A DNA stretch of 64,000 nt from a virus (taxonomy: Duplodnaviria; Caudoviricetes): the IMG/VR virus record IMGVR_UViG_3300024346_000006; one strand, 5' to 3'. Each line of letters begins with the position of its first letter. Position 1 is the first letter of the stretch. The notes under the pieces were generated by a model. That model was not told where the DNA came from, made no database searches, and saw nothing but the letters and a program-made list of their open reading frames with translations. Made by a program: the position numbers and the translations under genes. Below, one piece after another: positions 3,448-43,548 of this stretch.

Positions 3448-3485
3448 TAATCATTCCAAAATAAAAAAAAATAGTGTAGTTTTGT

Positions 3486-3514
3486 ATACTACACTATTCT
3501 GAGCGGTAAGTCAA
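3486..3514 (-). promoter_or_regulatory. sigma70-type (early) promoter upstream of primase
   Basis: Minus strand TTGACT-17 nt-TAGTAT in the intergenic gap. Confidence 0.7.
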
Positions 3515-3522
3515 GTAGTTTT

Positions 3523-3813
3523 TTAACCCATCATATATATGTTGGCAACGATAGATGAGACTGCTGCAGCGAAAATAACCCAAAAGGCCTTTTGAAAAAT
3601 TGCAGTTGTTCTAGAATTTTCTTCTACTTTAAGTGTCAATGTGTCTAGTTTTTCAGAAAAACGATTTAGTCTCTCATACTGATGGGAATACTTTGCTTCC
3701 ATTGCTACCAGCTTTTCTTCTGCTCTAGCAATAGAAATCATCGCTTCGGACAACTTATCAATTTTTTCTTCAATTCTATCCAGTCTGTTTGCGGCTACAG
3801 TTTCTTGTACCAT
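3523..3813 (-). CDS. Coiled-coil protein with C-terminal TM helix (XhlA/holin-like)
   Basis: RLDRIEEKIDKLSE coiled coil, then hydrophobic FWVIFAAAVSSIVANIYMM; directly downstream of spanin pair. Confidence 0.5.
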   Translation of the reverse strand: MVQETVAANRLDRIEEKIDKLSEAMISIARAEEKLVAMEAKYSHQYERLNRFSEKLDTLTLKVEENSRTTAIFQKAFWVIFAAAVSSIVANIYMMG

Positions 3814-3841
3814 TTTTATTAAACCCTAAAAATTATTACTT

Positions 3842-4195
3842 CTATTTATTATTTTCATAATATTCTTTATATTCTATAATTATTATTCTTTGTTCTCCGA
3901 TATATCTCTTCATATCGTTTACAACCAATGATAAATTCTTATAAGATTCTTCATCGACTGCGAACAAGGCAACACTTTTACCACCTTCTCTAAGTTTTTT
4001 TATTACATCTTCATAATTTTCTGGGGTCACAACTAAAAATTCAAAATCTACCCAATTTACAGGTTTTGGCATAGGAAGATTCAATGGAACCTTTTCTGTA
4101 AAAACCTGTTCTGTAACAACAACCTCTTTTGGCGTAAAGACAGAACATCCCGCCAATAAAAAAATCGAAGACATTAGTATATATTTATTCATCAT
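3842..4195 (-). CDS. Outer-membrane lipoprotein, o-spanin (Rz1-like)
   Basis: Signal peptide with lipobox LLAG-C at residue 17; Pro-rich PLNLPMPKP; overlaps upstream i-spanin-like gene by 4 nt. Confidence 0.7.
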   Translation of the reverse strand: MMNKYILMSSIFLLAGCSVFTPKEVVVTEQVFTEKVPLNLPMPKPVNWVDFEFLVVTPENYEDVIKKLREGGKSVALFAVDEESYKNLSLVVNDMKRYIGEQRIIIIEYKEYYENNK

Positions 4196-4596
4196 TCATT
4201 TTCCACTACAACGTCTGAAGTCAATTCTTCTATTCCTGCCCTTAAACTATTTTGAATGTCTTTATTAATTATTCGTTCTACTAGTCCAGGCTTGTTCTCA
4301 GCAAGATAACCAATGTCGTGTTTTGATAATTTGTTTCGTAGAACATCAACTTCATTATTTAATTTTCTACTTTCTTCCGTTACTCTATTATTTGCTTCTC
4401 TGACTTCTACAATTTCTTCATTCAATCTATTAATTTCTCGATCTTTCGAATTTACAGCTGTCTCTAACAATACATTATTTTTAGCTAGTCTGTCAACATC
4501 TTTCTGTAAGTTTTTTACATACAAGTAACCACCACCAGCAACCGATAGTAGTACTAATACAAGTGCAATCTTTGCTCCACTGAAAATGCCCATCAT
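4192..4596 (-). CDS. Inner-membrane i-spanin (Rz-like)
   Basis: N-terminal TM (IALVLVLLSVAGGGYLYV) followed by a long periplasmic-type coiled coil; paired with lipoprotein gene. Confidence 0.7.
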   Translation of the reverse strand: MMGIFSGAKIALVLVLLSVAGGGYLYVKNLQKDVDRLAKNNVLLETAVNSKDREINRLNEEIVEVREANNRVTEESRKLNNEVDVLRNKLSKHDIGYLAENKPGLVERIINKDIQNSLRAGIEELTSDVVVENE

Positions 4597-5498
4597 AAAT
4601 CTCTGTGTAAAATTATCATTGTTCCGTGTTGTTGATCTTGCAAAACTATTCTCTTATTTGGGTTTGATTTTATGTATTTTCTAATATCAACAGCATCATC
4701 TTTTTCGATGAAGTTCTCCCATCTACCATACTTCTTTTTACCTCTCATAAATTTGTTAAAAGAATCTGGTTTTACCTTGAATATTTTCATTCCAGCAAAT
4801 TGATATGGATCTTGAATAAATCCACCAATGTTGGAAGAATCACCTACTACATTTGCAATATCCTCAACAACAAATTCTTCCGCTATTTCTGGATATGTTT
4901 GTTTCATGATCTTTGCAAGAGTTCTTCCATCTACTCCAGAATATGTTTTTGCAATCTGGTCAGAATAATAATTAATACTGTGTCTTAGACCTCTTATACC
5001 ACCTTCTTTTTTCTTTCTCTGCAAAACTTTTAACAAAGTATCAAGAGCATGGTCGTATACTTTCTTTTTACCAGTTTTTGATTTAATGACATTTATTACG
5101 TCATTAGACCACATTTCATTTAGAAGTTCAGACTCTTTGTTATGGTATTCTTCTTCTAAAATATTAATATAATCTAACAATGCAACTTCCAGTAGTTGCA
5201 GGTCGTCTTCTTTTAAATTTTCTTTATTCTCTTTAAGAAGTGCCATTGCAGCTGCATAAGTTGCAATTCTAGATCTACCGCCTGGAAACTTTTCTAAAAT
5301 TCTTTTGAGGTTAAAAATAATCTTATGAAAAACTGTGAAAGATTTTTTTTCTGCGTCTGTTTTCAGTTCATTAGTTTTTTTTAACTTATTCCCTTTATCA
5401 TCAATAACACCATTCTTAAACGCCTCAGTGTCGCTCCAAGGAGTTGTTAGAATTTTAATAAACTGATATGCAAGGTAGGCATTAAATACTGATGCCAT
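4593..5498 (-). CDS. Hypothetical T4-like protein, probable head/internal protein, modular
   Basis: 301 aa ORF; internal LLNE and FVVE sites flank a central module. Confidence 0.6.
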   Translation of the reverse strand: MASVFNAYLAYQFIKILTTPWSDTEAFKNGVIDDKGNKLKKTNELKTDAEKKSFTVFHKIIFNLKRILEKFPGGRSRIATYAAAMALLKENKENLKEDDLQLLEVALLDYINILEEEYHNKESELLNEMWSNDVINVIKSKTGKKKVYDHALDTLLKVLQRKKKEGGIRGLRHSINYYSDQIAKTYSGVDGRTLAKIMKQTYPEIAEEFVVEDIANVVGDSSNIGGFIQDPYQFAGMKIFKVKPDSFNKFMRGKKKYGRWENFIEKDDAVDIRKYIKSNPNKRIVLQDQQHGTMIILHRDL

Positions 5499-5893
5499 TA
5501 TATCTCTCCTAGAATTTGTACTATGTGGCTATCTCTTCCAATCATACTACTATCAATAGTCTTACCATTAACTCCTTCAATTTTATTTGGCAATCTATTT
5601 AAAAAGTCCAAAAAAGTTGCAAGAATATAATGTTGTTCTTCATCAATTTTCAAAAACAAAACTCTATTACAAGGCAATGTATTTAATACATTTAGTAATA
5701 CTACTAAATGATTTATTATCAACCTTTCCTTCAAAACGCCTTTAGTATGATACTTATGGAAAAGTCTTTTGACATATTTTATTCTTTTCATGTCATCAAG
5801 AAACTCTTCCATATTATGACATTGAGGATTGTCATAATGTTTCATTTGATAATTGGCTACAGTTGTCTCCGTCAAATTTTCAAAATTTTCCAT
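5498..5893 (-). CDS. Conserved hypothetical protein of marine T4-like phages
   Basis: 131 aa; YDNPQC...EEFLDDMKRIKYVKRL...LKERLIINH pattern recalled from T4-like phages. Confidence 0.6.
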   Translation of the reverse strand: MENFENLTETTVANYQMKHYDNPQCHNMEEFLDDMKRIKYVKRLFHKYHTKGVLKERLIINHLVVLLNVLNTLPCNRVLFLKIDEEQHYILATFLDFLNRLPNKIEGVNGKTIDSSMIGRDSHIVQILGEI

Positions 5894-5914
5894 GTTATAT
5901 TTCTTTTTATTTTA

Positions 5915-6277
5915 TTATTGTGGTAAAACCTCTGTCAATTCAGTGATCAAATCTTCTTTCTTTTTTCTTCTGTCCAACTCAAGTCCATGGTCTCTACCAA
6001 GGGACTCTAATTCGATTTTAGTTAAATCACTTAATTCAACAGGCCGGTCTGATTCCTCAGAATCAGATTCTTCAGAACCAGATTCTGGTGTTTCAACAAC
6101 CTCTACATTTTTCTTCGCAGAAGATTTTTTCTTTGGTGGAGCAAGTTCATCAATCTTATCTTTTAATCCATTGATTTTTTTGTATACTTCACCAGTATTT
6201 TCGTTTTCCCATCCACGATTGGTTGCTACTGCATTTTTCATCCACTTCGCTGGGGTTGCCCATTTAGGTAATGACAT
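5915..6277 (-). CDS. Hypothetical protein with C-terminal Rho-N/HeH-like helical domain
   Basis: C-terminal LSDLTKIELESLGRDHGLELDRRKKKEDLITEL after an acidic/Ser linker. Confidence 0.55.
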   Translation of the reverse strand: MSLPKWATPAKWMKNAVATNRGWENENTGEVYKKINGLKDKIDELAPPKKKSSAKKNVEVVETPESGSEESDSEESDRPVELSDLTKIELESLGRDHGLELDRRKKKEDLITELTEVLPQ

Positions 6278-6289
6278 TTAAGTTCTCCT

Positions 6290-9200
6290 CTATTTTATAT
6301 AACTTGCAATTTTTTTGGCTCTGGGTTTATTACCGTATTTTTCCATCGCCATTTGTTCTACTTCTTTTTTAACTTGGTTCGTATTATATTTAGGGTTCAT
6401 TTCTCTAACGATTTCTTCCATTTCCTTTGCATCTTTTTTATCGGAATTTTCAATGATTATATTGATTTCGTTAATCTCTTCCCTTTTCATAATTTTATAT
6501 GCAAGATCAACTAACTTAGGCAATGGAAGTTTTTCCATCTTAGACTTATTAGAGTCGTTGACCTTATCGTATATTTGAACAACTGCAGATGCAGTAAACA
6601 AATCAACGATAGTCCCTTTAATTTTCTTTGCCTGTTTGTTATCAACGATATCTCTCATATCATCAATAATAGACTCTGCAAAAAGTTCGGCCTCTTCTTT
6701 TAGTCCAAGTTTTTTTGCAAGGTCTGCGGCATCTTTGCCCATTCCATAAGAGTTGTCTTTGATTCTCTGTTTAAACCAATTTTTAATTACTGGACGAGCA
6801 TCACCCTTTGGATTTTTCTTACCAGCATCCGCAAGATCGTCAAACAATTCATCGTCACCCAAAAGACTATAAAGTACCTCTGTTGCATCATCTCCCTCTT
6901 TTCCGAGAGTAATTGGTTTAGACATCAATTTCTTTAATGCAGTCACTTCGGATGACTTGTCAGCAAATGCCCAAGTACCTTCTTGCAAATCTTCATTTGT
7001 TAATTGGATTGCTTTGGAAATTGCAGGATCATCAGAAAGTCCTTTTGCAATCTTTTCAATTGTTCCGATAATCTGTGTCATATTACCACCCTTCCAACGA
7101 GGGTCATTAAGAACACCAAATGCCATCTTGTACTGTTTCGTAGAATACTTTTTCTCACTAATAGTTTCTAATTCTTCGAAAATTCTTGCTGCCTGTCCAA
7201 GAGATATAGTGTTAATCGCACCCATATCATCTAAAGTTCTAAACTTAATACTTGTTCTGTCTAGTTGTAGTTCGACATCATAAACTTTTCCGTTTTTACC
7301 ACGAATACTATAGATAATTCCATTTTTCATTTTTGGGCTACTACCCTTAATTTTTGGAGCACGTTCTGTAATTTCTTCTTTTATATCTACAGGCGAAACT
7401 GCCATATCTCCGAAAGCCATTGTAACTCCTCCATCTCTTTTGTACAAATATCTTTTAGCACTAGTAGGACTATCTTTTCTTGCCAGAGTAATTTTTTCTA
7501 CTGTGCCGTTACGAACCATGTTCTTAGACTTGACAATATACTCAATAAAATCTTTACCCTTCTCTAACGCAGAGTCATGTTTGATTTTAACAGTAGAACC
7601 CTTTTTTAGTTTATCAAAAACTCTAAGTAACTTAGGGTCGTTCATCTTCATACCTTCAACCATTTCTGCCTTTGAAGACGCCTCTTGGACTTCTTCCTGT
7701 TTATGTTTTGCTCTGATTGTTGCAAGAAGTTCTTCACCCATTCTCTTACCCTGAGATGCACTAACATTAGTTGGAAACTTATCCATATTTGATGGTAAAG
7801 GCCTTCCAATCATTTTTTCGGATTCTTTTTGGCTCTGTGGTTTTGTAAGAGTAACAATCTTTAGAGTATTCTTATTCTTGATCGACATAGGCGGCAGTTC
7901 TGCAGAAGCTCTAGACTGTTTAACACCCTTTTCGCTAGATGCCATCGCAACAACTTTGTTACCGTTTGCAGTATCAATCAGTGCATGGGTGTTTTTCATT
8001 GCTTCATTCATTTCTGGGGTTTCGTGAGAATATCCTAGTTTTTTCATGCGTTCATGATCTTCTGGTTTTTCTGCTTTGTAACCTTTACCTGTCTTTGGAT
8101 CATACATCATATGTGGTTTGAATTCGCCTTCACCAAGTTCTACTTCTTCTTTGTACATGTTCAGTTCATATCTCTTGTTGTCAAGATTTGCAACTTGAAT
8201 TTGTACACCTCTAGATTTACCCTTCTTATCAGTACCCATCAAACGATACGAATTAGTTTTTCCATTAGATGGTTTTTTAGGGCCCATAGCAACTTTATCG
8301 TCAATTTCATCTGGGTCGATTTCAATTCCAAGTTTTTTCTTTGCATGGTCATATGCATGTTTCATTGCACTAGAAAAGTCTTTGTGATATAACTCGTAAC
8401 CAGTCGCAGACTTTGCTTCATCGAACCGCATTGAGTGTTGCCCAGTACTTCGAACCTTCTCTGCATCCTTCATAGTCTTGTAAGGTTTACCTTGGTTTAC
8501 AAATTTACCCTTAGTCATAACCTGTACTTGGAAACCTTTGTTTGGGAGTTTATCAACACCCAACTCTTTACGAATTTTGTCTTGTGCTTTGTTACCCAAA
8601 TCAATGATACGAACCGTACCTTCTTTAGATGCTTCATCAAGATCTTCTCCAACAAGTCTTTTTGCATACGCATTAAACGACTTTTGATCTTCTACAGAGT
8701 CTTTACCTTTACCTAGACCTTGGAAAATTTCTCTCCATGCCTTTCCGTCATTCGTCTTTTTGAAGTATGCCTGCAGTTTAGCAGCAGTTTTTTTGTCAAC
8801 ATTTATAATTTCTTTATCATCATAAGATAGACTCCCAATTGCATGTTTACCAGCTCTAACTTCCCAACGTTCTTCTAAAATTTTATTAAAAATTTCTTCG
8901 GTGGTGATATCTTCTTTTCTATATCCAAGTTTCTTCAATTTCTCTTTAAATGCAGATTGTCTACCATCAAATTGCTTTTCGTTAGAAAGGTCTTTTTTAC
9001 CTTGATCTTTATACATCAATTTCTGGAGTTTTTCTTTAAAGGCCTTTGTTCTACCATCCAATTCTTGTTTTTTAATTTCGATAGAATCTTTTACAGCGTT
9101 TTCTAAATTTCCCCTGTCGTTACACATATCACATCCTTTACCTTCACACTTAACGCAAGGCATCTTTCCTTCTTTTACCGCCTTCGCAACTTTGTCAGAA

Positions 9201-9445
9201 ATAGTGACAGGATACTCCTTATCGCCGAATTTAAATTTTGTCTTGCCTGCTGATTTCGCAGCACTAGCAGCACCAATAAAGTCAGCAACATCTTCTTCTC
9301 TTACTTTTTTTGCAACATCCTTACTGATAGTGACAGGATACTCTTTATCGCCAAGTTTAAATTTTTTCTCACCAGCGGCCTGCGCTGCAGACGCTGCACC
9401 AATAAAGGCGGCAATGTCTTCAATTGTCATATTCTTTTTAAACAT
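6290..9445 (-). CDS. Large mosaic protein; probable internal-head polyprotein processed at [LIVMF]xE sites
   Basis: 1051 aa, K/E-rich; ~14 short modules separated by motifs such as EDLDE|A, EMNE|A, EEVQE|A, EEITE|R, EDLQE|G; late-promoter-like GATAAATA just upstream (~9468-9475). Confidence 0.7.
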   Translation of the reverse strand: MFKKNMTIEDIAAFIGAASAAQAAGEKKFKLGDKEYPVTISKDVAKKVREEDVADFIGAASAAKSAGKTKFKFGDKEYPVTISDKVAKAVKEGKMPCVKCEGKGCDMCNDRGNLENAVKDSIEIKKQELDGRTKAFKEKLQKLMYKDQGKKDLSNEKQFDGRQSAFKEKLKKLGYRKEDITTEEIFNKILEERWEVRAGKHAIGSLSYDDKEIINVDKKTAAKLQAYFKKTNDGKAWREIFQGLGKGKDSVEDQKSFNAYAKRLVGEDLDEASKEGTVRIIDLGNKAQDKIRKELGVDKLPNKGFQVQVMTKGKFVNQGKPYKTMKDAEKVRSTGQHSMRFDEAKSATGYELYHKDFSSAMKHAYDHAKKKLGIEIDPDEIDDKVAMGPKKPSNGKTNSYRLMGTDKKGKSRGVQIQVANLDNKRYELNMYKEEVELGEGEFKPHMMYDPKTGKGYKAEKPEDHERMKKLGYSHETPEMNEAMKNTHALIDTANGNKVVAMASSEKGVKQSRASAELPPMSIKNKNTLKIVTLTKPQSQKESEKMIGRPLPSNMDKFPTNVSASQGKRMGEELLATIRAKHKQEEVQEASSKAEMVEGMKMNDPKLLRVFDKLKKGSTVKIKHDSALEKGKDFIEYIVKSKNMVRNGTVEKITLARKDSPTSAKRYLYKRDGGVTMAFGDMAVSPVDIKEEITERAPKIKGSSPKMKNGIIYSIRGKNGKVYDVELQLDRTSIKFRTLDDMGAINTISLGQAARIFEELETISEKKYSTKQYKMAFGVLNDPRWKGGNMTQIIGTIEKIAKGLSDDPAISKAIQLTNEDLQEGTWAFADKSSEVTALKKLMSKPITLGKEGDDATEVLYSLLGDDELFDDLADAGKKNPKGDARPVIKNWFKQRIKDNSYGMGKDAADLAKKLGLKEEAELFAESIIDDMRDIVDNKQAKKIKGTIVDLFTASAVVQIYDKVNDSNKSKMEKLPLPKLVDLAYKIMKREEINEINIIIENSDKKDAKEMEEIVREMNPKYNTNQVKKEVEQMAMEKYGNKPRAKKIASYIK

Positions 9446-9473
9446 GAAAAATCTCCGTTTTTTTACTATTTAT

Positions 9474-11600
9474 CTATTTTTTAACCTTGGCCCACAAATC
9501 TGCATCACCAGTAGTTCTTGTTTTCCCACCTGTGATAAAAGAATTCACTCTCGCAAACGCCCATTGTTGTGGAGTAGTTCCCGGCCTGTGGCCACCCTTC
9601 CAGGCCGCCATACCTCTATCATATACCTTTTTTAGAATTTCATATGAAATACCAGATTTATCTGCCTTTTTAACTAATCCAGCAATCTTTGCTTCGTCTA
9701 ATGTCTCTGTACTATCTTCGCCAAACATCTGCTTATATTTCTTAGTATATTGTGAAGGTTTCGTTTCTGCATCTGTATCTCCAGGCGCTGGTTTATAAGA
9801 AGAATCTTTTCTATCTGGTTTAGATGCCTGTTTTTTAAAATGAGCAGCTCTTTTATCTTTAGTAGACTTGGACATCTCATCACCATCAGCATCTTTTGCA
9901 TAATACTTTTTTGGTTGAGATCCCTCTTTGTCTTTGATATCTGGGTCTTGAGTTGTCTTTCTTTCGTAAATAAATTGTGAAAAACTTTTTATATTCTCTT
10001 CTAAATCTTCCGCAGAATAACCAAGTTTCTTTTTTAGTATATTCATTGCAGTTGCCATCTTAACTTGCATCCACTCATCGCCGTATCTTTTCTTAAAATC
10101 ATCATCTGGCAAATCTTTTGCAATCTTTTCTAAATCCTTTTCTCTTTCTGGATTCATCTTAAAATCTTCTAGTTTATTTCCGTCCTTGTCGTACTTACCA
10201 GATTTCTTTTTCGCAATCGCAATCGCAGCCTGTTGAGCTCTAGATACACCTTCATCTTTTCCAGAAATCCTGTCACGGAAATCTTTTTTAATTTCTCCAT
10301 CTGTCACTTTCTCAACATCTTGAATAATCTTTGGATTTTTTAATAATTTGCGTAGGTTGTTTTTAACTTCCCCAGCACTACTTGCATCTATATAAAAAGT
10401 AGGTAATCCTTCAATATCTACTTGATAATTTGCTTCCTCAAGACTTTCATATTTTAATTCTTTACTTGATGTAGAAAAATTCTTTTTACGCATGATTGTT
10501 TTATGTACAACTTCAAACTCACCATTCTTGTAATTGATGACTACAGGCAGATTTAAATTAGTTGACATGTCTTTGAGAACTGCTTCGATATCAGGATTTG
10601 ACTTAATCTGCGAACCTTTTTTCTTTTGAATCTTTTTGAAAAACTTTTGAAGTTCTGCAACTTTAATCTCTGGGTCATTTCTTTTATCATTCATTCTGTC
10701 AACAAAATGTCTTGTAAATGTAACATCAATATCATACTTTGCAAGCATTCTATCTGCAAACTTTTCTAAATCATCAATTTGTTTTTGAGACACTTCCTCA
10801 TTATTGTATATTTTTTTATATACCGTATCATAATCATCATCAATACCAATTTTAAAATCTAACTCTTTATAAACAGATTCCATCAATATTTCATCTTCGA
10901 TATCTTCTACAATCTCTACAAATTCTGTTTCAATAAAACGTGAAAAGTCTGCATTGGTTGCTTCAAGAAACTCTAACAATTCTTCACTTATATTCATTGA
11001 CTTTCTGAGAGTATCAAATAATTTTTTTCCATTAGACTTTTCAAAGTCAGAAGGCAAACCAGATTTAAATCCGTTGAGTATTTTACCAGTTTTCGGGTCT
11101 TTCTCATCTTCATATCTATTTGCAGCTGCTGCTGCTCTCATTTTAGATGCTGACATACCAGCAACACCCTCTGCATCAGGATCTCTTTCCCCCGCAGAAA
11201 CTACTTCAATACCATCTTTAAAATCATAGAAACCATGGCTTCCTTCTTTACCATTATATTTGTTAAGTGTAGTTTTAAATTCTGTAACTCTATCTCCACC
11301 GACAACCATAATACATCTCTTATAACCCATGTCATATAACATAGGAGCAATCATAAATGCAGTCTTTGCATTTCTATTAGAGATGATATTGCGAGAATAC
11401 TTTGGAAACATCTTTTTCATAAAACCAACTTTAGTTTTATGATCTAAAGGATCTTTTTTGTCATTTTGTGAATGACTAGGAAATACCATAAAGTCGGCGC
11501 CTTCTTTTTTAGCAACCGATGCAAGTTTTTTTATTAATTTTTCGTGTCCTGTGGTTGGGGGATTAAACCTACCAAATGTAAAAATTACTGTATCTTTCAT
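9474..11600 (-). CDS. HxGH nucleotidyltransferase (cytidyltransferase-like) fused to several C-terminal modules
   Basis: TFGRFNPPTTGHEKL, VVGGDRV, VVSAGERDPD...MSASKMR; C-terminal YDRGMAAWKGGHRPG...WAFARVNSF domain. Confidence 0.8.
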   Translation of the reverse strand: MKDTVIFTFGRFNPPTTGHEKLIKKLASVAKKEGADFMVFPSHSQNDKKDPLDHKTKVGFMKKMFPKYSRNIISNRNAKTAFMIAPMLYDMGYKRCIMVVGGDRVTEFKTTLNKYNGKEGSHGFYDFKDGIEVVSAGERDPDAEGVAGMSASKMRAAAAANRYEDEKDPKTGKILNGFKSGLPSDFEKSNGKKLFDTLRKSMNISEELLEFLEATNADFSRFIETEFVEIVEDIEDEILMESVYKELDFKIGIDDDYDTVYKKIYNNEEVSQKQIDDLEKFADRMLAKYDIDVTFTRHFVDRMNDKRNDPEIKVAELQKFFKKIQKKKGSQIKSNPDIEAVLKDMSTNLNLPVVINYKNGEFEVVHKTIMRKKNFSTSSKELKYESLEEANYQVDIEGLPTFYIDASSAGEVKNNLRKLLKNPKIIQDVEKVTDGEIKKDFRDRISGKDEGVSRAQQAAIAIAKKKSGKYDKDGNKLEDFKMNPEREKDLEKIAKDLPDDDFKKRYGDEWMQVKMATAMNILKKKLGYSAEDLEENIKSFSQFIYERKTTQDPDIKDKEGSQPKKYYAKDADGDEMSKSTKDKRAAHFKKQASKPDRKDSSYKPAPGDTDAETKPSQYTKKYKQMFGEDSTETLDEAKIAGLVKKADKSGISYEILKKVYDRGMAAWKGGHRPGTTPQQWAFARVNSFITGGKTRTTGDADLWAKVKK

Positions 11601-11983
11601 GACCCTGCTCTTGTGATTTTAGTGATTCTTTCAATCTGTTGATTGATAATAGCCTCTCTATTGGGCCAGTAAATATACTCTTTTTCTTTATTCTTCATTA
11701 GATTATTTAGAAGAGGCATTATCAAGTTCTCCACCTCTTGTAATTTATTTGATACAATAACTTTCTCATTTTCATAGTAATCTTTTACTATAGAAACTTC
11801 ATCCAACATACTTCCAAGGCGGTCTGCAAGATTGTCCATTTTATATTCTAAAAGTTTTACGCTCTCGCCTGTAGTCTCCAACTGAGAAGACATCTCTTGA
11901 GTATGGGTAGATGTACCAGTTAATCCTTTAAGATCATCTTCATCTACTGCTGTAAAACCAAAATCTATATCGTCTTGTGTCAT
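11597..11983 (-). CDS. Hypothetical protein
   Basis: 128 aa; DFGFTAVDED N-terminus, PLLNNLMKNKEKEYIYWPNR C-terminus; 4-nt overlaps with neighbours. Confidence 0.6.
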   Translation of the reverse strand: MTQDDIDFGFTAVDEDDLKGLTGTSTHTQEMSSQLETTGESVKLLEYKMDNLADRLGSMLDEVSIVKDYYENEKVIVSNKLQEVENLIMPLLNNLMKNKEKEYIYWPNREAIINQQIERITKITRAGS

Positions 11984-12261
11984 GTGTCAAACCTATGAAT
12001 TTTTATTTCTAATTTTCCACAGTCATATCCTTTTATGACTCTGTGAAAAACTCCTTTTTTTATTTTCAACATCATTCCTTCCAAAAGGAGAAAAGGAAAT
12101 TCGTCATCATACTGAAAGTGCCATCCATCGGAGTATAATATTTCAACCAATCTAGTTTCATTGTCTCTGTGCCACACTAAATCATTTACATCAGAATCGC
12201 CAGAAAATGTTCTCTTTACTGTTCTTTCATTAATTACTGTTTCAATATATGGAACCATCAT
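11980..12261 (-). CDS. Small cupin-like hypothetical protein
   Basis: LVWHRDNE motif 1 and IKKGVFHRV motif 2. Confidence 0.5.
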   Translation of the reverse strand: MMVPYIETVINERTVKRTFSGDSDVNDLVWHRDNETRLVEILYSDGWHFQYDDEFPFLLLEGMMLKIKKGVFHRVIKGYDCGKLEIKIHRFDT

Positions 12262-12271
12262 AAATCACCTA

Positions 12272-12814
12272 TTACCAGAAAAAATTACCACCACCACTTA
12301 ATCCAAGTTGTTTTGCATACTTTGGAAGTCTACATGCCCAATAGCCTGGTTTTGTCTTATCGTTTTTCTGATCGCAATTATGTCTTGCAACAAAACTCTT
12401 TCTTGCCTCTGGGTCATTAATTTTTGCAGTCAATCCTGTTGTATCCCCAAATGAAATCTTAATTACATTTCCTTTATCATTTTTAACATATACATAATAC
12501 TTTTTCTTACCACCCCTCTTTGGGGAATTCAATTCTACATCTTCTTCCATCAAGGGGCAGTCTAAAGGAACATATACGGCATCAAATTCTTGTTTCTCAA
12601 ACATCGCCCACTCACCAATATCTGTTTGTAACATTTCAATGTCGTAAAGGTCAAACTCGAGCTTACCTTCTTCATATAATTTTCTCGCCACTCTAAAGGT
12701 TTTGTAAAAATTATTTGAACCTAGACGAAAGACATTATCAATTAGTGGTATTTCATTCTGTCTATGATACAACACCATTTCTTCTATATTTTGAAACTGT
12801 TTATAAGTTTTCAT
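12272..12814 (-). CDS. Hypothetical two-module protein with capsid-targeting-like N-terminus
   Basis: Start re-assigned to 12814 (MKTYKQFQNIEE; ATGA overlap with upstream stop); C-terminal KKYYVYVKN...SFGD...RKSFVARHNC...GYWACR domain. Confidence 0.65.
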   Translation of the reverse strand: MKTYKQFQNIEEMVLYHRQNEIPLIDNVFRLGSNNFYKTFRVARKLYEEGKLEFDLYDIEMLQTDIGEWAMFEKQEFDAVYVPLDCPLMEEDVELNSPKRGGKKKYYVYVKNDKGNVIKISFGDTTGLTAKINDPEARKSFVARHNCDQKNDKTKPGYWACRLPKYAKQLGLSGGGNFFW

Positions 12815-13314
12815 CTCAATAACTTCTCCAATTCTCTCATAGTCTTCGCTGGATTGATATGACGAATACCAATACCACCTTTCGCTTCCCATTCTTTTAT
12901 ATTCTTAGGATAATCATCAATTAGAATATTTGGTTTATCATTTGTTGTAGCAAATTTCTGTTTATCTTCTCGTTGGACTAAATGTATTTTTCCATTCAAT
13001 CTCAAATTTTTTGAAATCCAAGCTCTTTTACCTTTTTGCGAATTCGAATCTCTTTTGGAATATGCAGATAAAATGTTTGCATTGTACTTGTTTAACATTT
13101 TCCACATCTTTTCCGAGCCTGACATCCATGGTAGGGTGTGCCAAAAATCTTTCTTGGATTTAATATCTTCCCATCTTTCTTCTTTGTCGGTTGATGCAAA
13201 GTCTTTATTAAATGCGGTTGTATAACCGCCTGTGAAATTACAAAGAACTTCGTCCATATCACAATAAATTTCTGGCATTTCTTTTTCAAAAATATATTGA
13301 TTGAAAGTTTTCAT
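12811..13314 (-). CDS. HAD-family 5'(3')-deoxyribonucleotidase-like phosphatase
   Basis: IYCDMDEVL (DxD), ILSA, ILIDDYPKN; N-terminus MKTFNQYIFE. Confidence 0.85.
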   Translation of the reverse strand: MKTFNQYIFEKEMPEIYCDMDEVLCNFTGGYTTAFNKDFASTDKEERWEDIKSKKDFWHTLPWMSGSEKMWKMLNKYNANILSAYSKRDSNSQKGKRAWISKNLRLNGKIHLVQREDKQKFATTNDKPNILIDDYPKNIKEWEAKGGIGIRHINPAKTMRELEKLLR

Positions 13315-13604
13315 TTCATTAAACCTTTTATTACTTTTAGTGCCATCTTACCATCTGGGTGATGCGGATTAATACTGACTTCATCCCCATTAACAAAATC
13401 AGAAATACTAGCTGACTTGCCAAGAGCAGTAATTGCTTTGTGTAGTGGATCTTTTGGATCGTATCTTCGTTCAAAATTGGGTTTTCCTCTTAGTTCGACC
13501 CAGCTCTTTTCTTTAGTATCCCACATCTTAAGTACATCTTGATCTTTACCACGAACCAATTTGAGCTTAATACCTTCAGAAAGATATTGAGTAAAACCTA
13601 ACAT
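13311..13604 (-). CDS. Hypothetical protein with capsid-targeting-like N-terminus
   Basis: 97 aa; MLGFTQYLSE leader. Confidence 0.6.
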   Translation of the reverse strand: MLGFTQYLSEGIKLKLVRGKDQDVLKMWDTKEKSWVELRGKPNFERRYDPKDPLHKAITALGKSASISDFVNGDEVSINPHHPDGKMALKVIKGLMK

Positions 13605-14548
13605 CAGTCATCGTCCATTTCGTCCATGATACTGTAATCATAAACAGCGTCGATGTAATCCTTTGCCTTCGTCACTTTAGAAACTACCCACGCCTCCATT
13701 TCATATTCATTATTTTGTGGATTATCGACTTCTTCCATAAGTGCCTCTGCAAGTTCTGTGGACTTATTAGAAAGAATGATGAGTTGTCTCAACATCATCT
13801 CCAAACTATCCTGTGCAAACTCTGCGTCTTCTATAAATAGTTCTTCTTTAATTCCTCTTGCGGCCTTTTCTGCAGAAATCCACTTTTTAGCGACAGTTTT
13901 AGTTGGTGATTTCTTTGTCCACGCTCCAATAGTTCTATATGCCCTCATAACATCTCTTTCAAAGTCTGCGCCGTCAGAGTTATCAATTACAAACATTTTT
14001 TCCTTAAATGCAGACTGAAATTTACCAATGTTTCCTTGAACACCTTTCCACATAGATTCAACTTCATTGTCTGGAAGACTTCTCGCTCTTAATCTATTTC
14101 GGTTTAATGCGGTGTCTAAATCGGTATTGACAAAAATCATTGCGGTTTCGTAACCCATCGCCTCTAACTTGTCTTTTTGTTTTTTAATTTTATCATAATC
14201 TTTTCCAGTACCATCGACAACAAGTCCAAGTCTACCCCTCATATATCCCGCCTGTTGCGCCGCAGTAAGTGCTTTTGCTTTACCTCTTACTTGTTGTCCA
14301 AGGTCAGAGAAAATATCATCTGGATTTCCTTTGTCCAGTCCCGACTTATCCAACGCCCTTTCAAATGCAGGGTCGGAGTTTACAACTCTCAATCCAAAAG
14401 AAGTAAGTGCAGTTCTACCTACAATAAAAGATTTACCAGAACCTGGCCCACCGGCGAGGAACACCGCCTTAAAGATGCCTGGGTCATTGATACCTTCTTC
14501 TAAAGTTTCTTCATTTCTAAGATTTTCGATTATATTTCTTATATCCAT
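13604..14548 (-). CDS. P-loop kinase (AAA_33/zeta-toxin/PNK-like) with extra C-terminal helical module
   Basis: LAGGPGSGKS Walker A, LVVDGTG, ALNRNRLR lid; start re-assigned to 14548 (MDIRNIIE), just after upstream stop. Confidence 0.8.
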   Translation of the reverse strand: MDIRNIIENLRNEETLEEGINDPGIFKAVFLAGGPGSGKSFIVGRTALTSFGLRVVNSDPAFERALDKSGLDKGNPDDIFSDLGQQVRGKAKALTAAQQAGYMRGRLGLVVDGTGKDYDKIKKQKDKLEAMGYETAMIFVNTDLDTALNRNRLRARSLPDNEVESMWKGVQGNIGKFQSAFKEKMFVIDNSDGADFERDVMRAYRTIGAWTKKSPTKTVAKKWISAEKAARGIKEELFIEDAEFAQDSLEMMLRQLIILSNKSTELAEALMEEVDNPQNNEYEMEAWVVSKVTKAKDYIDAVYDYSIMDEMDDD

Positions 14549-14549
14549 T

Positions 14550-15803
14550 TTACTTGTCCCATGCCTTTGCTGCAGTAAAGTTATTATAACTAAATTCCAT
14601 TCGATCAACAATTTTCACGGCATTACCCTTTGTATCAATTGCAACATAACCTTCTGGATTTGTCACTTCATAACCGTTTTCTGTACGAACAAAAATCTGC
14701 GTTAACTGTTTAACACTATTTAGTTTATTTATAATAAGAGATTTAGCACCAATTAATTCTTCCATAAAATCAACAATTGAATATGCAACACTGTCTAATT
14801 TAATTAATTGTTTTACTGCATCATCTCTAATTCTTTCTTTATCTTTTCTTGCACCTTCTGTTTTTAACTTTGCAATAACTTTTTCGTCAAAAAACTTTTT
14901 AACATACATCGAATAGTCTAAATTTTTCATGTTCTTTGTAGAAATATTCTGTCCTTCACGAATATATGTGTTGAGATAGGTTTTGAAACTTGCACCAGCA
15001 AGTCCTTTAATAAAAATTTTGTTTTGGAGTTGCATAAATGTTTTAAAATCGTTTGATCTGATTTTCTTAAATTTTCTACCAACTTGAGACATTTGCCCAT
15101 CGAGTGTTTTTAGTTCGGACGAAGTAAATTTTGCAGAACCAGAAACATCTTTATATGTTGCATCATCCATCCACACAGATGATGTTTTCTTTAATCCAGA
15201 TATATTCACACCAAAAGAGGCCGTCATCGATGGTAAATCTTTTCCAGAATATGTTGTATGCCAAACAACACCAATCTTTGCAGCGTTGATTGCCTTTCCT
15301 AAATCAGAATCTTTCTGAACTGCATACATCAATGTGTTTTGTTGGAATGTTAGATATGTCTCGCCATCAAGTGTTTTTTCTGACACATCATCAGTAAACA
15401 TTAAGTCTCCTTGAATAACACCCTTAATTCCCAATTTAGAAAATTCTCGATATGCAACAGTAAATTTTGATTTTAATGCGGGACTTAGTTTTATATCTGC
15501 ATCGATCTCTGCAGTACTTTTATATAATAGTGGAGTCTCATTAAATACAGATTTTTTTGCGATAAAGAATTTTCCATCACTTGGATCTATTCCAGCGAAT
15601 ATAGCAGGAGCACCGTCCCACTTAACTGTCATGTTTACTTTAGAATCTGAATTTCCTGCCAACATGTCTCTTAAAGATAAAAGAAATTGTACAGCGGCAC
15701 GGCCACCATCGATTCCAAAGTTGAGAATTTCATCTTCAAGGTGTTCTAAGTGTAGATTTTTTCCACCTTTTGATTCAGTAAGATATTTTTTAAATGATTG
15801 CAT
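14550..15803 (-). CDS. DUF6267-like protein with ATP-dependent ligase (Rnl1-like) motifs
   Basis: VKWDGAP (KxDG), IQGDLMF, PEGYVAI, AVKIVD; N-terminus MQSFKKYLTE. Confidence 0.65.
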   Translation of the reverse strand: MQSFKKYLTESKGGKNLHLEHLEDEILNFGIDGGRAAVQFLLSLRDMLAGNSDSKVNMTVKWDGAPAIFAGIDPSDGKFFIAKKSVFNETPLLYKSTAEIDADIKLSPALKSKFTVAYREFSKLGIKGVIQGDLMFTDDVSEKTLDGETYLTFQQNTLMYAVQKDSDLGKAINAAKIGVVWHTTYSGKDLPSMTASFGVNISGLKKTSSVWMDDATYKDVSGSAKFTSSELKTLDGQMSQVGRKFKKIRSNDFKTFMQLQNKIFIKGLAGASFKTYLNTYIREGQNISTKNMKNLDYSMYVKKFFDEKVIAKLKTEGARKDKERIRDDAVKQLIKLDSVAYSIVDFMEELIGAKSLIINKLNSVKQLTQIFVRTENGYEVTNPEGYVAIDTKGNAVKIVDRMEFSYNNFTAAKAWDK

Positions 15804-17164
15804 TAGTAAAGTTTCCCGAATGGCCCAAATATTTTCCCCTTCTTTTGGGCAAGATATGTTAAAGTTGTTAGTAAATCATCTCTTTTTTCATCATTTGTGA
15901 TGGAGACAATTTCACACACCAAATGGAGTTGCATCAATTTACTATGAGCATAATCTGGTCTTGATGTGTTAAATGCCGATACCATATTTTTTTGAAACTG
16001 GTTTTCGGTTATTCCTGTATATTGTTTTACTTTGTTGAATTTATATAAGAATTTATTATAATCGTTCATGAATTCTTCTTCAGATGTAGGATAGTTTGTA
16101 TTATCATTATCCCAATTAAGGCCTTCGTCTGTAAAAATTTTTCTGGCCATGTCTAAAGGAACTTTACCAAGTCTTGCGGAAGTTGCGCCCAAGTCTGTTC
16201 CTTCAATTTTTAAATTATTAAAACCAGCACTATTTTGTCTGATTTGAAATTTAATTCTTCCCTTTTTACCTGATACAACAATTTTGGTATCTGAGTTAAC
16301 AAACTCTCCATTTCCCTTTGTCTTAAGATTGATATCGATGTCTTGTAATTTAAAGTTATATTCTTTATCATCAAAGATGTCCATGTTTTCTAGATTTACA
16401 AGTTCCCATCTTGCAGTTGTACCTGACATCTTTTTTAGGGAAATACCAACTATTCTTCTTTCATGGAACATATCTCTTAGAATGGCGTTAAATTCTTCTA
16501 GGGAAGTTACATCATCTAATACTTTTTCTTTTAAGGTGTTTTTTACTTTATTAAGGTCAGATACCAACCATATGTCTGCAGGGTTCCAAGTATCTTTTTT
16601 TGCAATACCATATTTTTGTTTACAAATTCCAGTAATGTAATCCATAAATCCACGGTCTCTGGAATAGTGTTTATAACTACTGTTTCCGACTTTATTATAT
16701 GTTGTTAATTGTTGCTGAAAGAATGTATTTTCCCATTCTTCATTCATAGCTGGATAAATCTTTTTTAGATCATCACGGTATAGTTTCATAAACTTGCCTT
16801 GATCTGTGTATCCATTATTTTCAATACCCATTTTTATCGCAAAAAGGGAGGCGAGTTCTTGCATCTGGGTAGTTTTCCCATCAGAACCGCCTCCCATTCC
16901 ACTAAAGGGTGCTTTATCTATTTGTGTCCACTTGTATCCATTAAAAATTGGAAGGTATTTACCACTTTTTGTCAAAGAACTCATAACTCTAGGTTGCGAC
17001 TTGTCCTTCACTGCCCCAAGAAACTTCTTTACTTCTGGAGTCAATTGAACCATAGCCTTTGATCTATCCGCAAACTTTAGTTCTTTTTTACTATTAATCA
17101 CATCTGCAACCATATTCAAGTATGGTTTTTCAAACTTTGTTTCTTTTGCTCCAAGGTTTGCCAA
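15803..17164 (-). CDS. Hypothetical protein, possible PD-(D/E)xK nuclease fold
   Basis: 453 aa, TTG start with AAGGGA SD; QELAS, WNPADIWLV, GISLKK motifs. Confidence 0.5.
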   Translation of the reverse strand: MANLGAKETKFEKPYLNMVADVINSKKELKFADRSKAMVQLTPEVKKFLGAVKDKSQPRVMSSLTKSGKYLPIFNGYKWTQIDKAPFSGMGGGSDGKTTQMQELASLFAIKMGIENNGYTDQGKFMKLYRDDLKKIYPAMNEEWENTFFQQQLTTYNKVGNSSYKHYSRDRGFMDYITGICKQKYGIAKKDTWNPADIWLVSDLNKVKNTLKEKVLDDVTSLEEFNAILRDMFHERRIVGISLKKMSGTTARWELVNLENMDIFDDKEYNFKLQDIDINLKTKGNGEFVNSDTKIVVSGKKGRIKFQIRQNSAGFNNLKIEGTDLGATSARLGKVPLDMARKIFTDEGLNWDNDNTNYPTSEEEFMNDYNKFLYKFNKVKQYTGITENQFQKNMVSAFNTSRPDYAHSKLMQLHLVCEIVSITNDEKRDDLLTTLTYLAQKKGKIFGPFGKLY

Positions 17165-17195
17165 TGGAATTCCCTTTTTGTTGAGTTAATACCAT

Positions 17196-17203
17196 TATTT
17201 ATA
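17196..17203 (-). promoter_or_regulatory. T4-type late promoter TATAAATA heading the 17.2-3.5 kb locus
   Basis: Exact TATAAATA on minus strand 32 nt upstream of start at 17164. Confidence 0.8.
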
Positions 17204-17206
17204 ATT

Positions 17207-17857
17207 TTACATATAATGTAGATAAGTGCCGACTACATACTTATCATCAGACTTTGCAGACATACACTGATGTGGATGTGTCCAGAAAGGTGGCCAGATT
17301 GCGAGCCTCCCCCTAACTGGATTCACACTTAGGTTATAATCTGGAAAGACTGTTTCGCCACCCTCTTCAACATCATTCAAATAGAAAAAACATGCAACAA
17401 ATCTTTTTGCAGATAAGTGGTCTCCAACATCCGCATGATATTTAAAATCATCATCAGAACCCTTAGTGTATTTTTTCATCTTAATTTCTTCATTGACACA
17501 CTGGCCAGGAAAAAACATAATATTATTATGTCTCCGATACATTTCAGTATACTCAGAAATAATACCTAAAAGTTTCATAGACCATTCTTCAAATTCTGGG
17601 AACTTTTCACATAGTTCTGGGTCAAAGAAATTTACCTCAGTATATGTTCTTGCTTCGGTATTTAATTTTCTCTGATGGTCAGTTGCCGATTCGAATAACT
17701 CGATCATCTTATTACAATCTTCATCTGATAAAACATTATCCCAAACCGAAATGAATGCTCGTTGACCATCGGGTGGTCGCATATCAAATTGTTCTTCATC
17801 TACTTCAAAATGAATTGTTGTTTCTGCAGTAGTAGCAGTATTTGTTTCTTGTGTCAT
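17207..17857 (-). CDS. 2OG-Fe(II) oxygenase (prolyl-4-hydroxylase-like)
   Basis: YHAD (HxD), YLNDVEEGGETVF, THPH, DKYVV. Confidence 0.88.
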   Translation of the reverse strand: MTQETNTATTAETTIHFEVDEEQFDMRPPDGQRAFISVWDNVLSDEDCNKMIELFESATDHQRKLNTEARTYTEVNFFDPELCEKFPEFEEWSMKLLGIISEYTEMYRRHNNIMFFPGQCVNEEIKMKKYTKGSDDDFKYHADVGDHLSAKRFVACFFYLNDVEEGGETVFPDYNLSVNPVRGRLAIWPPFWTHPHQCMSAKSDDKYVVGTYLHYM

Positions 17858-19230
17858 ATTTTTATCTCCACACTTCCGATTTTTTTCTTTCCTTCGTTTT
17901 GAAAATTCTTATAGGATGATGTACTCACTTCTGATACAATATCATTTTGTGCAGAATTTTCTGCATCGTAAAGACGCATCTTTGGCCTATCGATTCCAAC
18001 AACAAAGCGTTTATTATTGTTAATATCATTATATCTATTCTTCAACTGTTTAACCAAAATCTGATTCATGTCTTCCAACTCTTCAGTAGATATTAACGCA
18101 AACATCAAGTCTGCAGTCGCAGGAAGTCCAAATGACTCTGAAGTATCTGTTAATTCAACATCTGTATTTGAGTAACCAGAACGAGTAGTCTGTGTTGCGG
18201 TGATGATAGGTACATCATTCTCAACAGCAAGTCCTCTCAGTTCTTCTGCGATTGATTTTACAAGTGTATAAGAGTTTATACCAGCACCATAACGTATTCT
18301 TGCAGAACTACAAATATTCAAATAGTCAATGAATATAACATCTGGTGTAAAGTTCTTTTTGATTTGTAATTCATTCAACAAATGTCTAAAGTGATTTGCA
18401 TTAGCAACTGCAGTTGGATACTCTTTAATAATCAACTTACCAGTAGTTTTATTTTTAATCTTTTCTATTTTCTTTTCGAATGCAGATTTGGAAATACTTG
18501 AAACATCTGCGATAGAAATGTTAAGTAAGTTGGCATCAATTCTTTCTGCAATTTTTTCTTCAGACATTTCTAATGTAATGTATAAAACGTTTTTCCCCAT
18601 CATATAATGGTTTGCAGCGAGATCACACATAAACAAAGATTTACCAACACCAGTACCAGCAAGAGCAACATTTAATGTTTTGTTTGATAGTCCACCTTTG
18701 GTAATTTCGTTGAACAAGTCCAAATGAAAAGGTATCTTCTCTTCTACTCTATTGTAAAACTCAAATCTATCTTCAAAGTTATCGACAAAATCATGGCCAA
18801 TATGTGTATCAAACGATACCGCAAGTGCATCTTGTAATATTTTTGGTAAGTCACCTTTTTGGTCTTGATGGTCGTTCAATATACCAATCGATTTCATGAC
18901 TGCATTATATAATGCACGTTCTTGACACCACTTTTCGGTATGATCTACTTGCCAGTCAGTTTCTTTCTCATCTGTTTCTTTTAATTTCTCAATGAGGATA
19001 AGTGACTCTTTAAAATTATTTTCACTTAAACTAACATCATCTAATGATATCATCAAAGAGTCTTTGGTTGGCGTAGTATTGTATTTTTCGACATGACTAC
19101 GAATCAACTCAAATATAACTTTATTTGACTCACTAGTAAAATAGTCTTTTTCTAGGTATGGTAATGTTCTTCGCACATAATCTTCATTAGAATATAATGC
19201 ACTTAGAATTACACTTTCACTTAATTCCAT
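17854..19230 (-). CDS. gp41: Replicative DNA helicase (T4 gp41-like)
   Basis: ALAGTGVGKS, YITLEMSEE, FIDYLNI, TATQTTRSG, ESFGLPATAD, QLKNRY. Confidence 0.97.
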   Translation of the reverse strand: MELSESVILSALYSNEDYVRRTLPYLEKDYFTSESNKVIFELIRSHVEKYNTTPTKDSLMISLDDVSLSENNFKESLILIEKLKETDEKETDWQVDHTEKWCQERALYNAVMKSIGILNDHQDQKGDLPKILQDALAVSFDTHIGHDFVDNFEDRFEFYNRVEEKIPFHLDLFNEITKGGLSNKTLNVALAGTGVGKSLFMCDLAANHYMMGKNVLYITLEMSEEKIAERIDANLLNISIADVSSISKSAFEKKIEKIKNKTTGKLIIKEYPTAVANANHFRHLLNELQIKKNFTPDVIFIDYLNICSSARIRYGAGINSYTLVKSIAEELRGLAVENDVPIITATQTTRSGYSNTDVELTDTSESFGLPATADLMFALISTEELEDMNQILVKQLKNRYNDINNNKRFVVGIDRPKMRLYDAENSAQNDIVSEVSTSSYKNFQNEGKKKIGSVEIKI

Positions 19231-19549
19231 TCAATTTATCCGCTTCATTATAAAGTTTTTTTGCTTCGGACTCTAAGGTCTTCGCTCTATTATGTAGTTC
19301 TAAAATCTTTTCTTCTTTAGTTAAAGTTTTTTTTTGATCGATCAAAGTAATTGTTTCTGGTTCTTTATCTTCAGTACCATAAACTTCTTTCCACTTATCT
19401 GCAGGACATCTTAGATTTGCAATCTTTGCTTTTGCAGGCATAAAACATCCACACTTTTTACATACGAGGGCCAAACCTTGAAAGTGTTCGCACCCTCTAC
19501 AAGTATTGAGTCTTTGTTTATACACATGTTTAGAAGCAAAGATTTTCAT
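19217..19549 (-). CDS. Cys-rich small hypothetical protein with C-terminal coiled coil
   Basis: RLNTCRGCEHF...CKKCGCFM...CPADKW. Confidence 0.6.
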   Translation of the reverse strand: MKIFASKHVYKQRLNTCRGCEHFQGLALVCKKCGCFMPAKAKIANLRCPADKWKEVYGTEDKEPETITLIDQKKTLTKEEKILELHNRAKTLESEAKKLYNEADKLNGIK

Positions 19550-20565: not shown

Positions 20566-20577
20566 ATTATTCTCCTA

Positions 20578-43285: not shown

Positions 43286-43548
43286 ATTCCTGTCCTTCTT
43301 TGAAGTGATCTTCTTCTACGGAGATTTGCAATATTAACCTTGCCTTTTCTTTTCCTTGCGGAACGAGTGTTTCTAATACTCATTTTTCGCAGAGCGCCTG
43401 GATTAATCTTGACCTCTCTCTTGTTAATTACTTTATAACCGGCCTTATCAGACACATATTTAATTTTTCTTTTACCTTTTCTGATGACTATTTTTCTTTT
43501 GACTGCTTCGTCAAGGTCATCTTCCAAGAATTCTAAAAAAGAATGCAT
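43282..43548 (-). CDS. gp68: Prohead core protein gp68-like
   Basis: Basic, position before gp21; leader MHSFLEFLEDDLDE|A. Confidence 0.7.
   Translation of the reverse strand: MHSFLEFLEDDLDEAVKRKIVIRKGKRKIKYVSDKAGYKVINKREVKINPGALRKMSIRNTRSARKRKGKVNIANLRRRRSLQRRTGI

Follow-up and report, generated by a model that had tools for sequence, protein, structure and literature searches.

Do the short leaders that open several proteins of an uncultured marine phage address those proteins to the phage head, and could enzymes be carried into the host in this way? We addressed this question in a 64,000-nucleotide stretch of the IMG/VR record IMGVR_UViG_3300024346_000006 (Duplodnaviria; Caudoviricetes), hereafter called the window, and for one locus in it, which extends on the minus strand from 17203 down to 4593. 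An initial annotation had described this locus as a late-expressed set of capsid-targeted cargo proteins that are processed by the prohead protease, i.e., as an enlarged, enzymatic version of the internal-protein locus of T4. Our analysis favors a system of the T4 type, in which propeptides target enzymes to the capsid, and we assign it a probability of about 0.75. The window, in which all genes lie on the minus strand and the GC content is 35%, derives from a marine T4-like myophage that is uncultured; the isolates closest to it are Melnitz, a phage of OM43 that gave the sole nucleotide-level match among isolated phages, and the pelagimyophage HTVC008M, and its relatives at the protein level are these two phages and T4-like cyanophages.

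The shared leader and its specificity

The leaders found in the window are as follows.

15774-15803, minus strand: leader MQSFKKYLTE of the DUF6267 protein
13575-13604, minus strand: leader MLGFTQYLSE of a 97-residue protein
13285-13314, minus strand: leader MKTFNQYIFE of an NT5C-like phosphatase
12779-12814, minus strand: 12-residue leader MKTYKQFQNIEE of a 180-residue protein
9963-9992, minus strand: internal leader IKSFSQFIYE within a 708-residue protein
43522-43548, minus strand: leader MHSFLEFLE of an 88-residue protein beside gp21

All of the leaders, including the internal copy, lie where the initial annotation had placed them, and they occur far above chance. The pattern of this leader, or tag, comprises an initial Met, an aromatic residue at position 4, an aromatic or hydrophobic residue at position 7, Ile or Leu at position 8, and Glu at position 10. 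When all six frames of the window were scanned, the strict form of the pattern gave only five coding-frame sites in the locus and one hit in a non-coding frame, and the window leaders comprise three exact matches to the T4-type pattern (residues 4 and 7 aromatic, residue 8 Ile or Leu, and residue 10 Glu) as well as two variants. Furthermore, when 567 Met starts in the window were ranked with a profile that had been trained only on 36 marine leaders of the DUF6267 family, the top four were three leaders of the locus and the open reading frame (ORF) at 43548, and leaders were enriched in the locus relative to the remainder of the window (Fisher p = 0.005). The mature parts of the leader-bearing proteins are all basic, with isoelectric points (pI) of 8.3-11.9; the untagged small proteins (93, 128, and 120 residues) are acidic, and so is the kinase of the locus (pI 4.9), which has a divergent propeptide only.

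The comparison set consisted of 80 related contigs (823 kb in total), in which the core motif, coupled to an ORF of at least 50 residues, was found 120 times on the coding strand versus 5 times on the opposite strand, with Met at position -3 in 70 of the 120. With internal Met positions as the null and its 99.9th percentile as the threshold, the DUF6267 profile placed 67 of 1041 N termini of other families above the threshold, where ∼1 was expected. Among distinct relatives, the leader is present in 42 of 55 DUF6267 proteins, 7 of 9 counterparts of the 97-residue protein, and 7 of 7 counterparts of the 180-residue protein; it is also present in 18 of 34 nucleotidyltransferase proteins (mostly as the 9-mer MKKFSEIIE followed by Ala), in 2 of 10 NT5C proteins, and on three families that are absent from the window. 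Replication-side genes of the relatives carry no leader (0/38 gp41, 0/23 UvsX, 0/22 oxygenase, and 0/11 gp43), so that the enrichment test suggested by the initial annotation, which set the locus against replication genes here and in related genomes, finds the motif to be specific to the locus.

At least nine families carry the tag, and each has both tagged and untagged members. The codons at conserved leader positions vary (11 codons occur at position 8, where the residue is Leu, Ile, Met, or Val, and Phe and Glu are each encoded by either of their two codons), and the constraint therefore acts on the peptide; moreover, the nucleotides upstream of the leaders show no conservation. The DUF6267 family, which has thousands of homologs, illustrates how the leader comes and goes: among 150 representatives obtained by clustering at 50%, 56 have a canonical leader and ∼24 have no extension, and the cyanophage orthologs begin directly at the conserved core. 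Modules that are internal in the window are encoded elsewhere by separate genes whose products start with a leader. In other contigs, stand-alone versions of the module concerned begin with MKDYKEIFLRE, the N-terminal counterpart of the internal IKSFSQFIYE, and the middle domain of the 708-residue protein is likewise found as a separate gene, in some cases behind a leader and in others not.

Links to T4 capsid targeting and to cyanophage virions

The leader MKTYQEFIAE, which the initial annotation had given for IPII and IPIII, is indeed that of ipII and ipIII in the T4 record, where ipI starts MKTFKEFTS...ITE and Alt starts MELITELFDE. We scanned 121 of the 169 kb of the T4 sequence with the marine profile, and among 1005 Met starts in six frames, ipI, ipIII, and ipII were at ranks 3-5. 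Rank 1 was gene 61.1 (18966-19130 of the T4 sequence scanned), which encodes 54 residues beginning with MKTFKEFIKE, a near-perfect capsid targeting sequence, and which sits between genes 61 and 41, at the position syntenic with the window locus. In T4, residues 4 and 7 are the main determinants of targeting, and residues 8 and 10 are those of processing (PMC9026906); the conserved leader positions in the marine phages coincide with these four. T4 proteins that bear the tag, including foreign fusions, are retained in the head and delivered, and the tag has been speculated to be a general loading route for varied proteins in T4-like phages (PMC9026906).

A second line of evidence comes from cyanophage S-SM1. 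In purified S-SM1 virions, the T4-GC190 'cytidylyltransferase' was detected with 25 peptide counts, and GC1453, GC1454, GC1455, GC425, and GC426 were likewise detected (Sullivan et al. 2010; PMC3037559, Table S8). According to the S-SM1 record, all six proteins are encoded between gp41 and gp61, in synteny with the window locus. GC190 (SSM1_190) starts with MKKFSAFLNE, shares 38% identity with the nucleotidyltransferase of the window, and scores highest with the profile of all 284 starts in a 28-kb S-SM1 region; the runner-up, SSM1_192 (MLSFKELQE), is likewise among the detected virion proteins. As side observations, 6 of the 41 S-SM1 virion proteins come from one block (14447-21354) that lies away from the structural module, and words that start with 'cytid' are absent from the main text of the paper, the enzyme appearing only in the table (PMC3037559).

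The window also encodes the head-maturation proteins with which such a leader would have to work, namely the gp21 protease and the gp22 scaffolding core, both of which are expected in a T4-type internal-protein system.

42650-43285, minus strand: gp21 prohead protease (phrog_207 at 2e-79; 35% identity to T4 gp21)
41485-42606, minus strand: gp22 scaffold (phrog_237)
40053-41432, minus strand: gp23 major capsid protein, in which L-N-E64 followed by Ser aligns with the T4 site L-T-E65 followed by Ala
43282-43548, minus strand: 88-residue, very basic protein (mature pI 11.9) with the leader MHSFLEFLE, immediately upstream of gp21

These genes belong to a T4-type structural module (gp20 portal, gp21, gp22, gp23, and sheath and tube proteins), which is accompanied by gp55 and by the T4-type replication genes gp43, UvsX, gp41, gp61, and NrdA; between the major capsid protein and T4 gp23, the identity is 36%. 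An L/I-x-E specificity of the protease in this phage is suggested by the gp23 alignment and by the kinase homologs described below, all 11 of which have the motif at their core boundary. The gp21 N terminus, MKLITEVVEDILVE, resembles the T4 Alt propeptide MELITELFDE, and is possibly a self-processing or targeting site. The initial annotation had called the 88-residue protein gp68-like, and the label stands for its position next to gp21 and its basic composition but not for its sequence, as BLAST against T4 gp68 gave an E value of 3.9 and no PHROG or Pfam match was found; we did not accept the ORF as a gp68 homolog. The ORF is retained in closer relatives, where its leader varies (e.g., MKSFSEYLDE, MQSFGEYLDE, and MLSFAEFHDE). 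A complex prediction for the tagged 97-residue protein with gp22 residues 120-373 gave a score of 0.02, which counts neither way.

The proposed late unit and its predicted enzymes

The following elements bear on the expression of the locus.

17196-17203, minus strand: TATAAATA, the T4-type late promoter consensus heading the unit, 31 nucleotides upstream of the TTG start at 17164
14726-14733, minus strand: second TATAAATA, within the DUF6267 gene, 178 nucleotides upstream of the kinase start
36340-36888, minus strand: gp55-type late sigma factor (phrog_234 at 5.6e-63)
3523-4596, minus strand: end of the unit, with an i-spanin (4192-4596), an o-spanin lipoprotein (3842-4195), and a holin-like gene (3523-3813); PHROG spanin matches
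3468-3500, minus strand: intrinsic terminator (13-bp stem and T run)

The promoter box is present exactly where the initial annotation had located it, and a ribosome-binding site precedes the TTG start at 17164. The coding strand of the window has 13 copies of TATAAATA, versus two on the other strand, and 10 of the 13 coding-strand copies are intergenic, 21-42 nucleotides ahead of structural genes; the non-structural half has a single intergenic copy, namely that at 17203-17196. The related contigs contain 110 coding-strand copies versus 2 on the opposite strand, 89 of them intergenic and many directly ahead of tagged genes. The extreme strand bias of the box, which is mostly intergenic and lies 20-40 nucleotides before starts, is thus seen in the window and in the 80 contigs; late-promoter prediction was reported to have failed in pelagimyophage genomes (PMC7029224). 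Because gp55 is present, a T4-type late unit, as predicted from the promoter box and gp55, is the natural reading. The earlier description of ∼13 tightly coupled genes is right for the span 17164-4593, and there is no gap of more than 28 nucleotides downstream of 17164 until the terminator at 3500-3468. Most likely, the unit continues past 4593 through the two spanin genes and the holin-like gene to this terminator, which would give it a length of 13.7 kb (17203 to 3468) between gp41/2OG-Fe oxygenase and gp61. The lysis genes that would close the same late unit echo T4, in which the spanin genes pseT.3/pseT.2 adjoin pseT and rnlA.

The proteins encoded in the locus are listed below.

15803-17164, minus strand: first gene, 453 residues, phrog_1462 (PHROG match only), no leader
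14550-15803, minus strand: DUF6267 protein, 417 residues, predicted RNA-ligase-like nucleotidyltransferase (PF19782 at 5.5e-98)
13604-14548, minus strand: P-loop kinase (Zeta_toxin/AAA_33, polynucleotide-kinase-like), 314 residues (Pfam and PHROG matches)
14495-14548, minus strand: 18-residue N-terminal extension of the kinase, ending in LEE and followed by the conserved GINDP core
13311-13604, minus strand: 97-residue basic protein (mature pI 9.7)
12811-13314, minus strand: HAD-type 5'-nucleotidase-like phosphatase (NT5C), 167 residues (PF06941 and phrog_2643)
12272-12814, minus strand: 180-residue protein (phrog_7595); 7/7 distinct relatives have the same MKTYKQFQNIEE variant
11597-12261, minus strand: two small acidic proteins (93 and 128 residues), no leader
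9474-11600, minus strand: 708-residue three-module protein (Pfam and PHROG matches)
10416-10838, minus strand: putative RegB/RelE-fold domain, residues 255-395 of the 708-residue protein
4593-9445, minus strand: four further genes without a canonical leader, encoding a 1051-residue mosaic basic protein and proteins of 120, 131 (DUF7207), and 301 residues

The DUF6267 protein retains Lys61, Asp63, Gly64, Glu384, Gly385, and Lys397 as invariant residues in 95 sequences, and these comprise motif I (K-x-D-G) and motifs IV and V of ligases. Its model has a mean predicted local distance difference test (pLDDT) score of 91.6, and the only disordered stretch is formed by residues 1-11, which score below 50. 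With an exhaustive aligner, the structural matches were 5cot (Naegleria Rnl; Z 9.3), 1xdn (REL1; 8.7), T4 Rnl2 (8.1), Trl1 (8.0), and T4 Rnl1 (7.9), and more than 20 of the top 50 matches are ligases, the Z values being moderate; Foldseek against PDB returned nothing for this model or for that of the RegB-like domain, and PDB sequence searches returned nothing for the DUF6267, 453-residue, or 708-residue protein. The invariant motifs and the modeled adenylyltransferase fold, for which the top matches are RNA ligases, identify the DUF6267 protein as a predicted RNA-ligase-like enzyme of the ATP-dependent RNA/DNA ligase superfamily. In other phages, DUF6267 is fused with a nucleotidyltransferase (phrog_455) or with a kinase (P0163), which suggests that these enzymes work together.

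In place of the canonical 10-mer, the kinase has a propeptide that is longer and divergent, with L-x-E at its end. In 11 of 11 distinct homologs, [LIVM]-x-E immediately precedes the conserved GxNDP core, and some of these homologs start with M-x-K-[TF]-F-x-D-F, which recalls the longer propeptide of IPI. The 453-residue protein showed no Pfam or PDB sequence match, and 0 of 10 distinct relatives carries a leader on it. The initial annotation had counted it as nuclease-like cargo, a claim that was not supported: the protein has no leader, and the sole lead to a nuclease, a feature similarity of 0.84 to restriction enzymes, was too weak to be accepted. No homolog of the 97-residue protein was found in isolated phages.

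The 708-residue protein combines a cytidylyltransferase-like nucleotidyltransferase (residues ∼1-220), the putative RegB/RelE-fold domain (residues 255-395; model pLDDT 86.8), the internal leader, and a basic DUF5824 module. For the middle domain, the best of 48,161 chains was T4 RegB (Z 7.5 over 116 residues), with RelE-family toxins next, and an invariant His298-x-x-Asp-Arg302 aligns with His48-x-x-Asp-Arg52 of T4 RegB; BLAST of this domain against T4 RegB was not significant (E 1.2). Hundreds of stand-alone RegB-like homologs of ∼126 residues occur in metagenomes. In Melnitz, the counterpart of the 180-residue protein is fused to the C terminus of the nucleotidyltransferase protein, and a single 650-residue protein (16951-18903) thus contains the nucleotidyltransferase, the DUF5824 module, and the domain of the 180-residue gene. 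One junction in this fusion reads NIVSFKEHLD, with Asp in place of the Glu of the tag; in T4, Asp at this position blocks cutting, while targeting is unaffected.

We also considered whether the 1051-residue protein is a polyprotein that is cut at its junctions. The N termini of stand-alone relatives map to 38-39, 318, and 748-751, and as none of them is preceded by a leader or by L-x-E, the idea gained no support from this limited test. The N terminus of the protein (9150-9445, minus strand) contains two tandem modules of ∼45 residues (..FIGAASAA..KFK.GDKEYPVTIS..VAK.V.E), and large proteins encoded in related contigs begin with this module as well.

Weighing the readings against known systems

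In the capsid-targeting system that we favor, the tagged proteins would be made late, and the tag would dock them on the gp22 scaffolding core during prohead assembly. The gp21 prohead protease would then cut after Glu at the L/I-x-E site, and the mature, mostly basic proteins would remain in the head with the DNA and exit with it at infection. The probable cargo comprises the DUF6267 RNA-ligase-like enzyme, the HAD phosphatase, the P-loop kinase with its IPI-like longer propeptide, the nucleotidyltransferase/RegB-like/DUF5824 protein, the two small basic proteins, and the 88-residue, very basic protein beside gp21. We infer docking, cleavage, packaging, and retention in this lineage largely from what is known of T4, and the enzyme roles are predictions; injection, its timing, and an action before phage gene expression would follow entirely from T4 precedent. 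Taken as a whole, the proposal of the initial annotation is supported in part: it gains from the specificity of the motif, its conservation as a peptide, its portability, its cross-recognition in T4, the presence of gp21, gp22, and gp55, and the tagged ortholog in S-SM1 virions, and it needs to be narrowed with respect to which proteins of the locus are cargo.

Several points weigh against this reading. For seven of the 13 genes in the span 17164-4593, we saw no leader and no L-x-E boundary of the kinase type (these encode the first protein, the 1051-residue protein, which is the largest, and five smaller ones), and the propeptide of the kinase is itself divergent. The nucleotidyltransferase of the window, whose S-SM1 ortholog is tagged, carries no leader at its N terminus and has apparently lost its tag. 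Many orthologs have no leader, and the enzymes can therefore function untagged. As the profile was trained within the clade, only the T4 and S-SM1 checks are independent, and we know of no report of the product of T4 gene 61.1 as a packaged protein. The S-SM1 data show the virion presence of a tagged ortholog only, and neither its cleavage nor a location inside the head; moreover, GC190 was not detected in the S-PM2 and Syn9 proteomes (PMC3037559). A literature search outside subscription journals turned up neither virion proteomes nor data on N termini, be it for this phage or for a pelagimyophage or Melnitz relative.

The leader might also direct proteins to the prohead and into gp21 cleavage without making them delivered effectors, such that they would serve as core or scaffold accessories in assembly or be degraded and expelled like gp22 and most gp67/gp68. 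The same leader is indeed found on a small basic protein of the head module, T4 core proteins are also gp21 substrates (PMC9026906), and injection is argued by analogy with T4. However, mature virions of S-SM1 contain six products of the syntenic locus, the cargo is predicted to consist of folded enzymes that are not scaffold-like, and in T4 even foreign fusions with the tag are retained and delivered (PMC9026906), for which reasons we regard a role restricted to assembly as unlikely. We consider it slightly less likely still that the shared N terminus is a tag for a partner outside the capsid, whether the neighboring 2OG-Fe(II) oxygenase, a chaperone, or a system for timed proteolytic activation or degradation. 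While the oxygenase gene (17207-17857) lies directly upstream of the locus, it is equally adjacent in cyanophages whose orthologs have no leader, and it is separated from the locus in Melnitz; furthermore, the leader agrees with the T4 signal at the four positions to which functions have been mapped, and its last residues form the protease motif, and a tagged S-SM1 protein was found in virions.

A feature that acts at the nucleotide level, either as a signal for translational coupling or initiation or as a recombination linker that shuffles genes, with no function of the peptide, would suit the tight coupling of the genes through ATGA-type overlaps. For the T-even internal-protein locus, Repoila et al. 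(1994) reportedly proposed recombination at the sequence that encodes the leader. Such a feature is nevertheless very improbable, because codons at the conserved residues vary freely, the upstream nucleotides are unconserved, and the pattern persists when it is internal to a protein.

Beyond the capsid-targeting system itself, it is a reasonable guess that the predicted cargo is a kit that heals and seals RNA ends, together with an RNase. A bolder proposal would be that the abundant T4-like phages that infect SAR11 and OM43-type hosts in the sea inject this RNA-enzyme kit (RegB-like RNase, ligase-like enzyme, kinase, phosphatase, and nucleotidyltransferase) with their DNA, that it cuts host messages and repairs RNA damage inflicted by host defense before phage expression begins, that the tag is ancient and predictive, and that T4 gene 61.1 encodes an overlooked internal protein. 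We put this forward tentatively, with the odds somewhat against it; the tag would then allow the proteins injected by thousands of uncultured T4-like phages to be predicted. If the capsid-targeting reading is true, the T4 signal would be an old portable address label and not a T-even peculiarity, common to very distant marine relatives with a capsid protein of only 36% identity, and the proteins that a phage carries into its host could be read from sequence. The enzymatic, seemingly RNA-directed cargo would then point to host takeover or counter-defense ahead of transcription, in phages whose hosts rank among the most abundant ocean bacteria.

The closest known systems include the internal proteins and Alt of T4. 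IPI, IPII, and IPIII share with the window proteins an N-terminal tag of 10 residues (19 in IPI) that has the same pattern and an L/I-x-E end, that is portable, and that precedes basic mature proteins; the T4 tag is removed by gp21. The mature parts in the window are unrelated to those of T4, and many of them are predicted enzymes of 18-80 kDa or multi-module proteins, whereas the T4 internal proteins are small and DNA-associated; the window genes lie in one predicted late unit between gp41 and gp61. Alt, a head-carried ADP-ribosyltransferase that is processed by gp21 and delivered with the DNA, likewise has a short propeptide ending in Glu, but it is a single enzyme with another activity, whereas the window encodes several enzymes that apparently act on RNA or nucleotides. 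GC190 of S-SM1 is a nucleotidyltransferase ortholog from the same gp41-gp61 locus, with a tagged start and virion association, and differs in being a cyanophage protein. We found no paper on such tags in pelagimyophages or cyanophages in literature searched outside subscription journals.

Two further comparisons define what would be particular to the window. The T4 enzymes Pnk (kinase and HAD phosphatase), Rnl1, and RegB have activities like those predicted in the locus, where a predicted ligase fold, a kinase, an HAD phosphatase, and a putative RegB-like fold are found together; the T4 enzymes are early, cytoplasmic, and untagged, whereas their window counterparts, whose activities are predictions, are tagged and lie behind a late promoter. 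The ejection proteins of phiKZ and SPN3US also comprise many head-packaged proteins, including enzymes, that are cut at a Glu-ending motif by a gp21-related protease, but their propeptides are long and diverse, in place of a shared T4-type 10-mer, and they belong to another lineage with other cargo.

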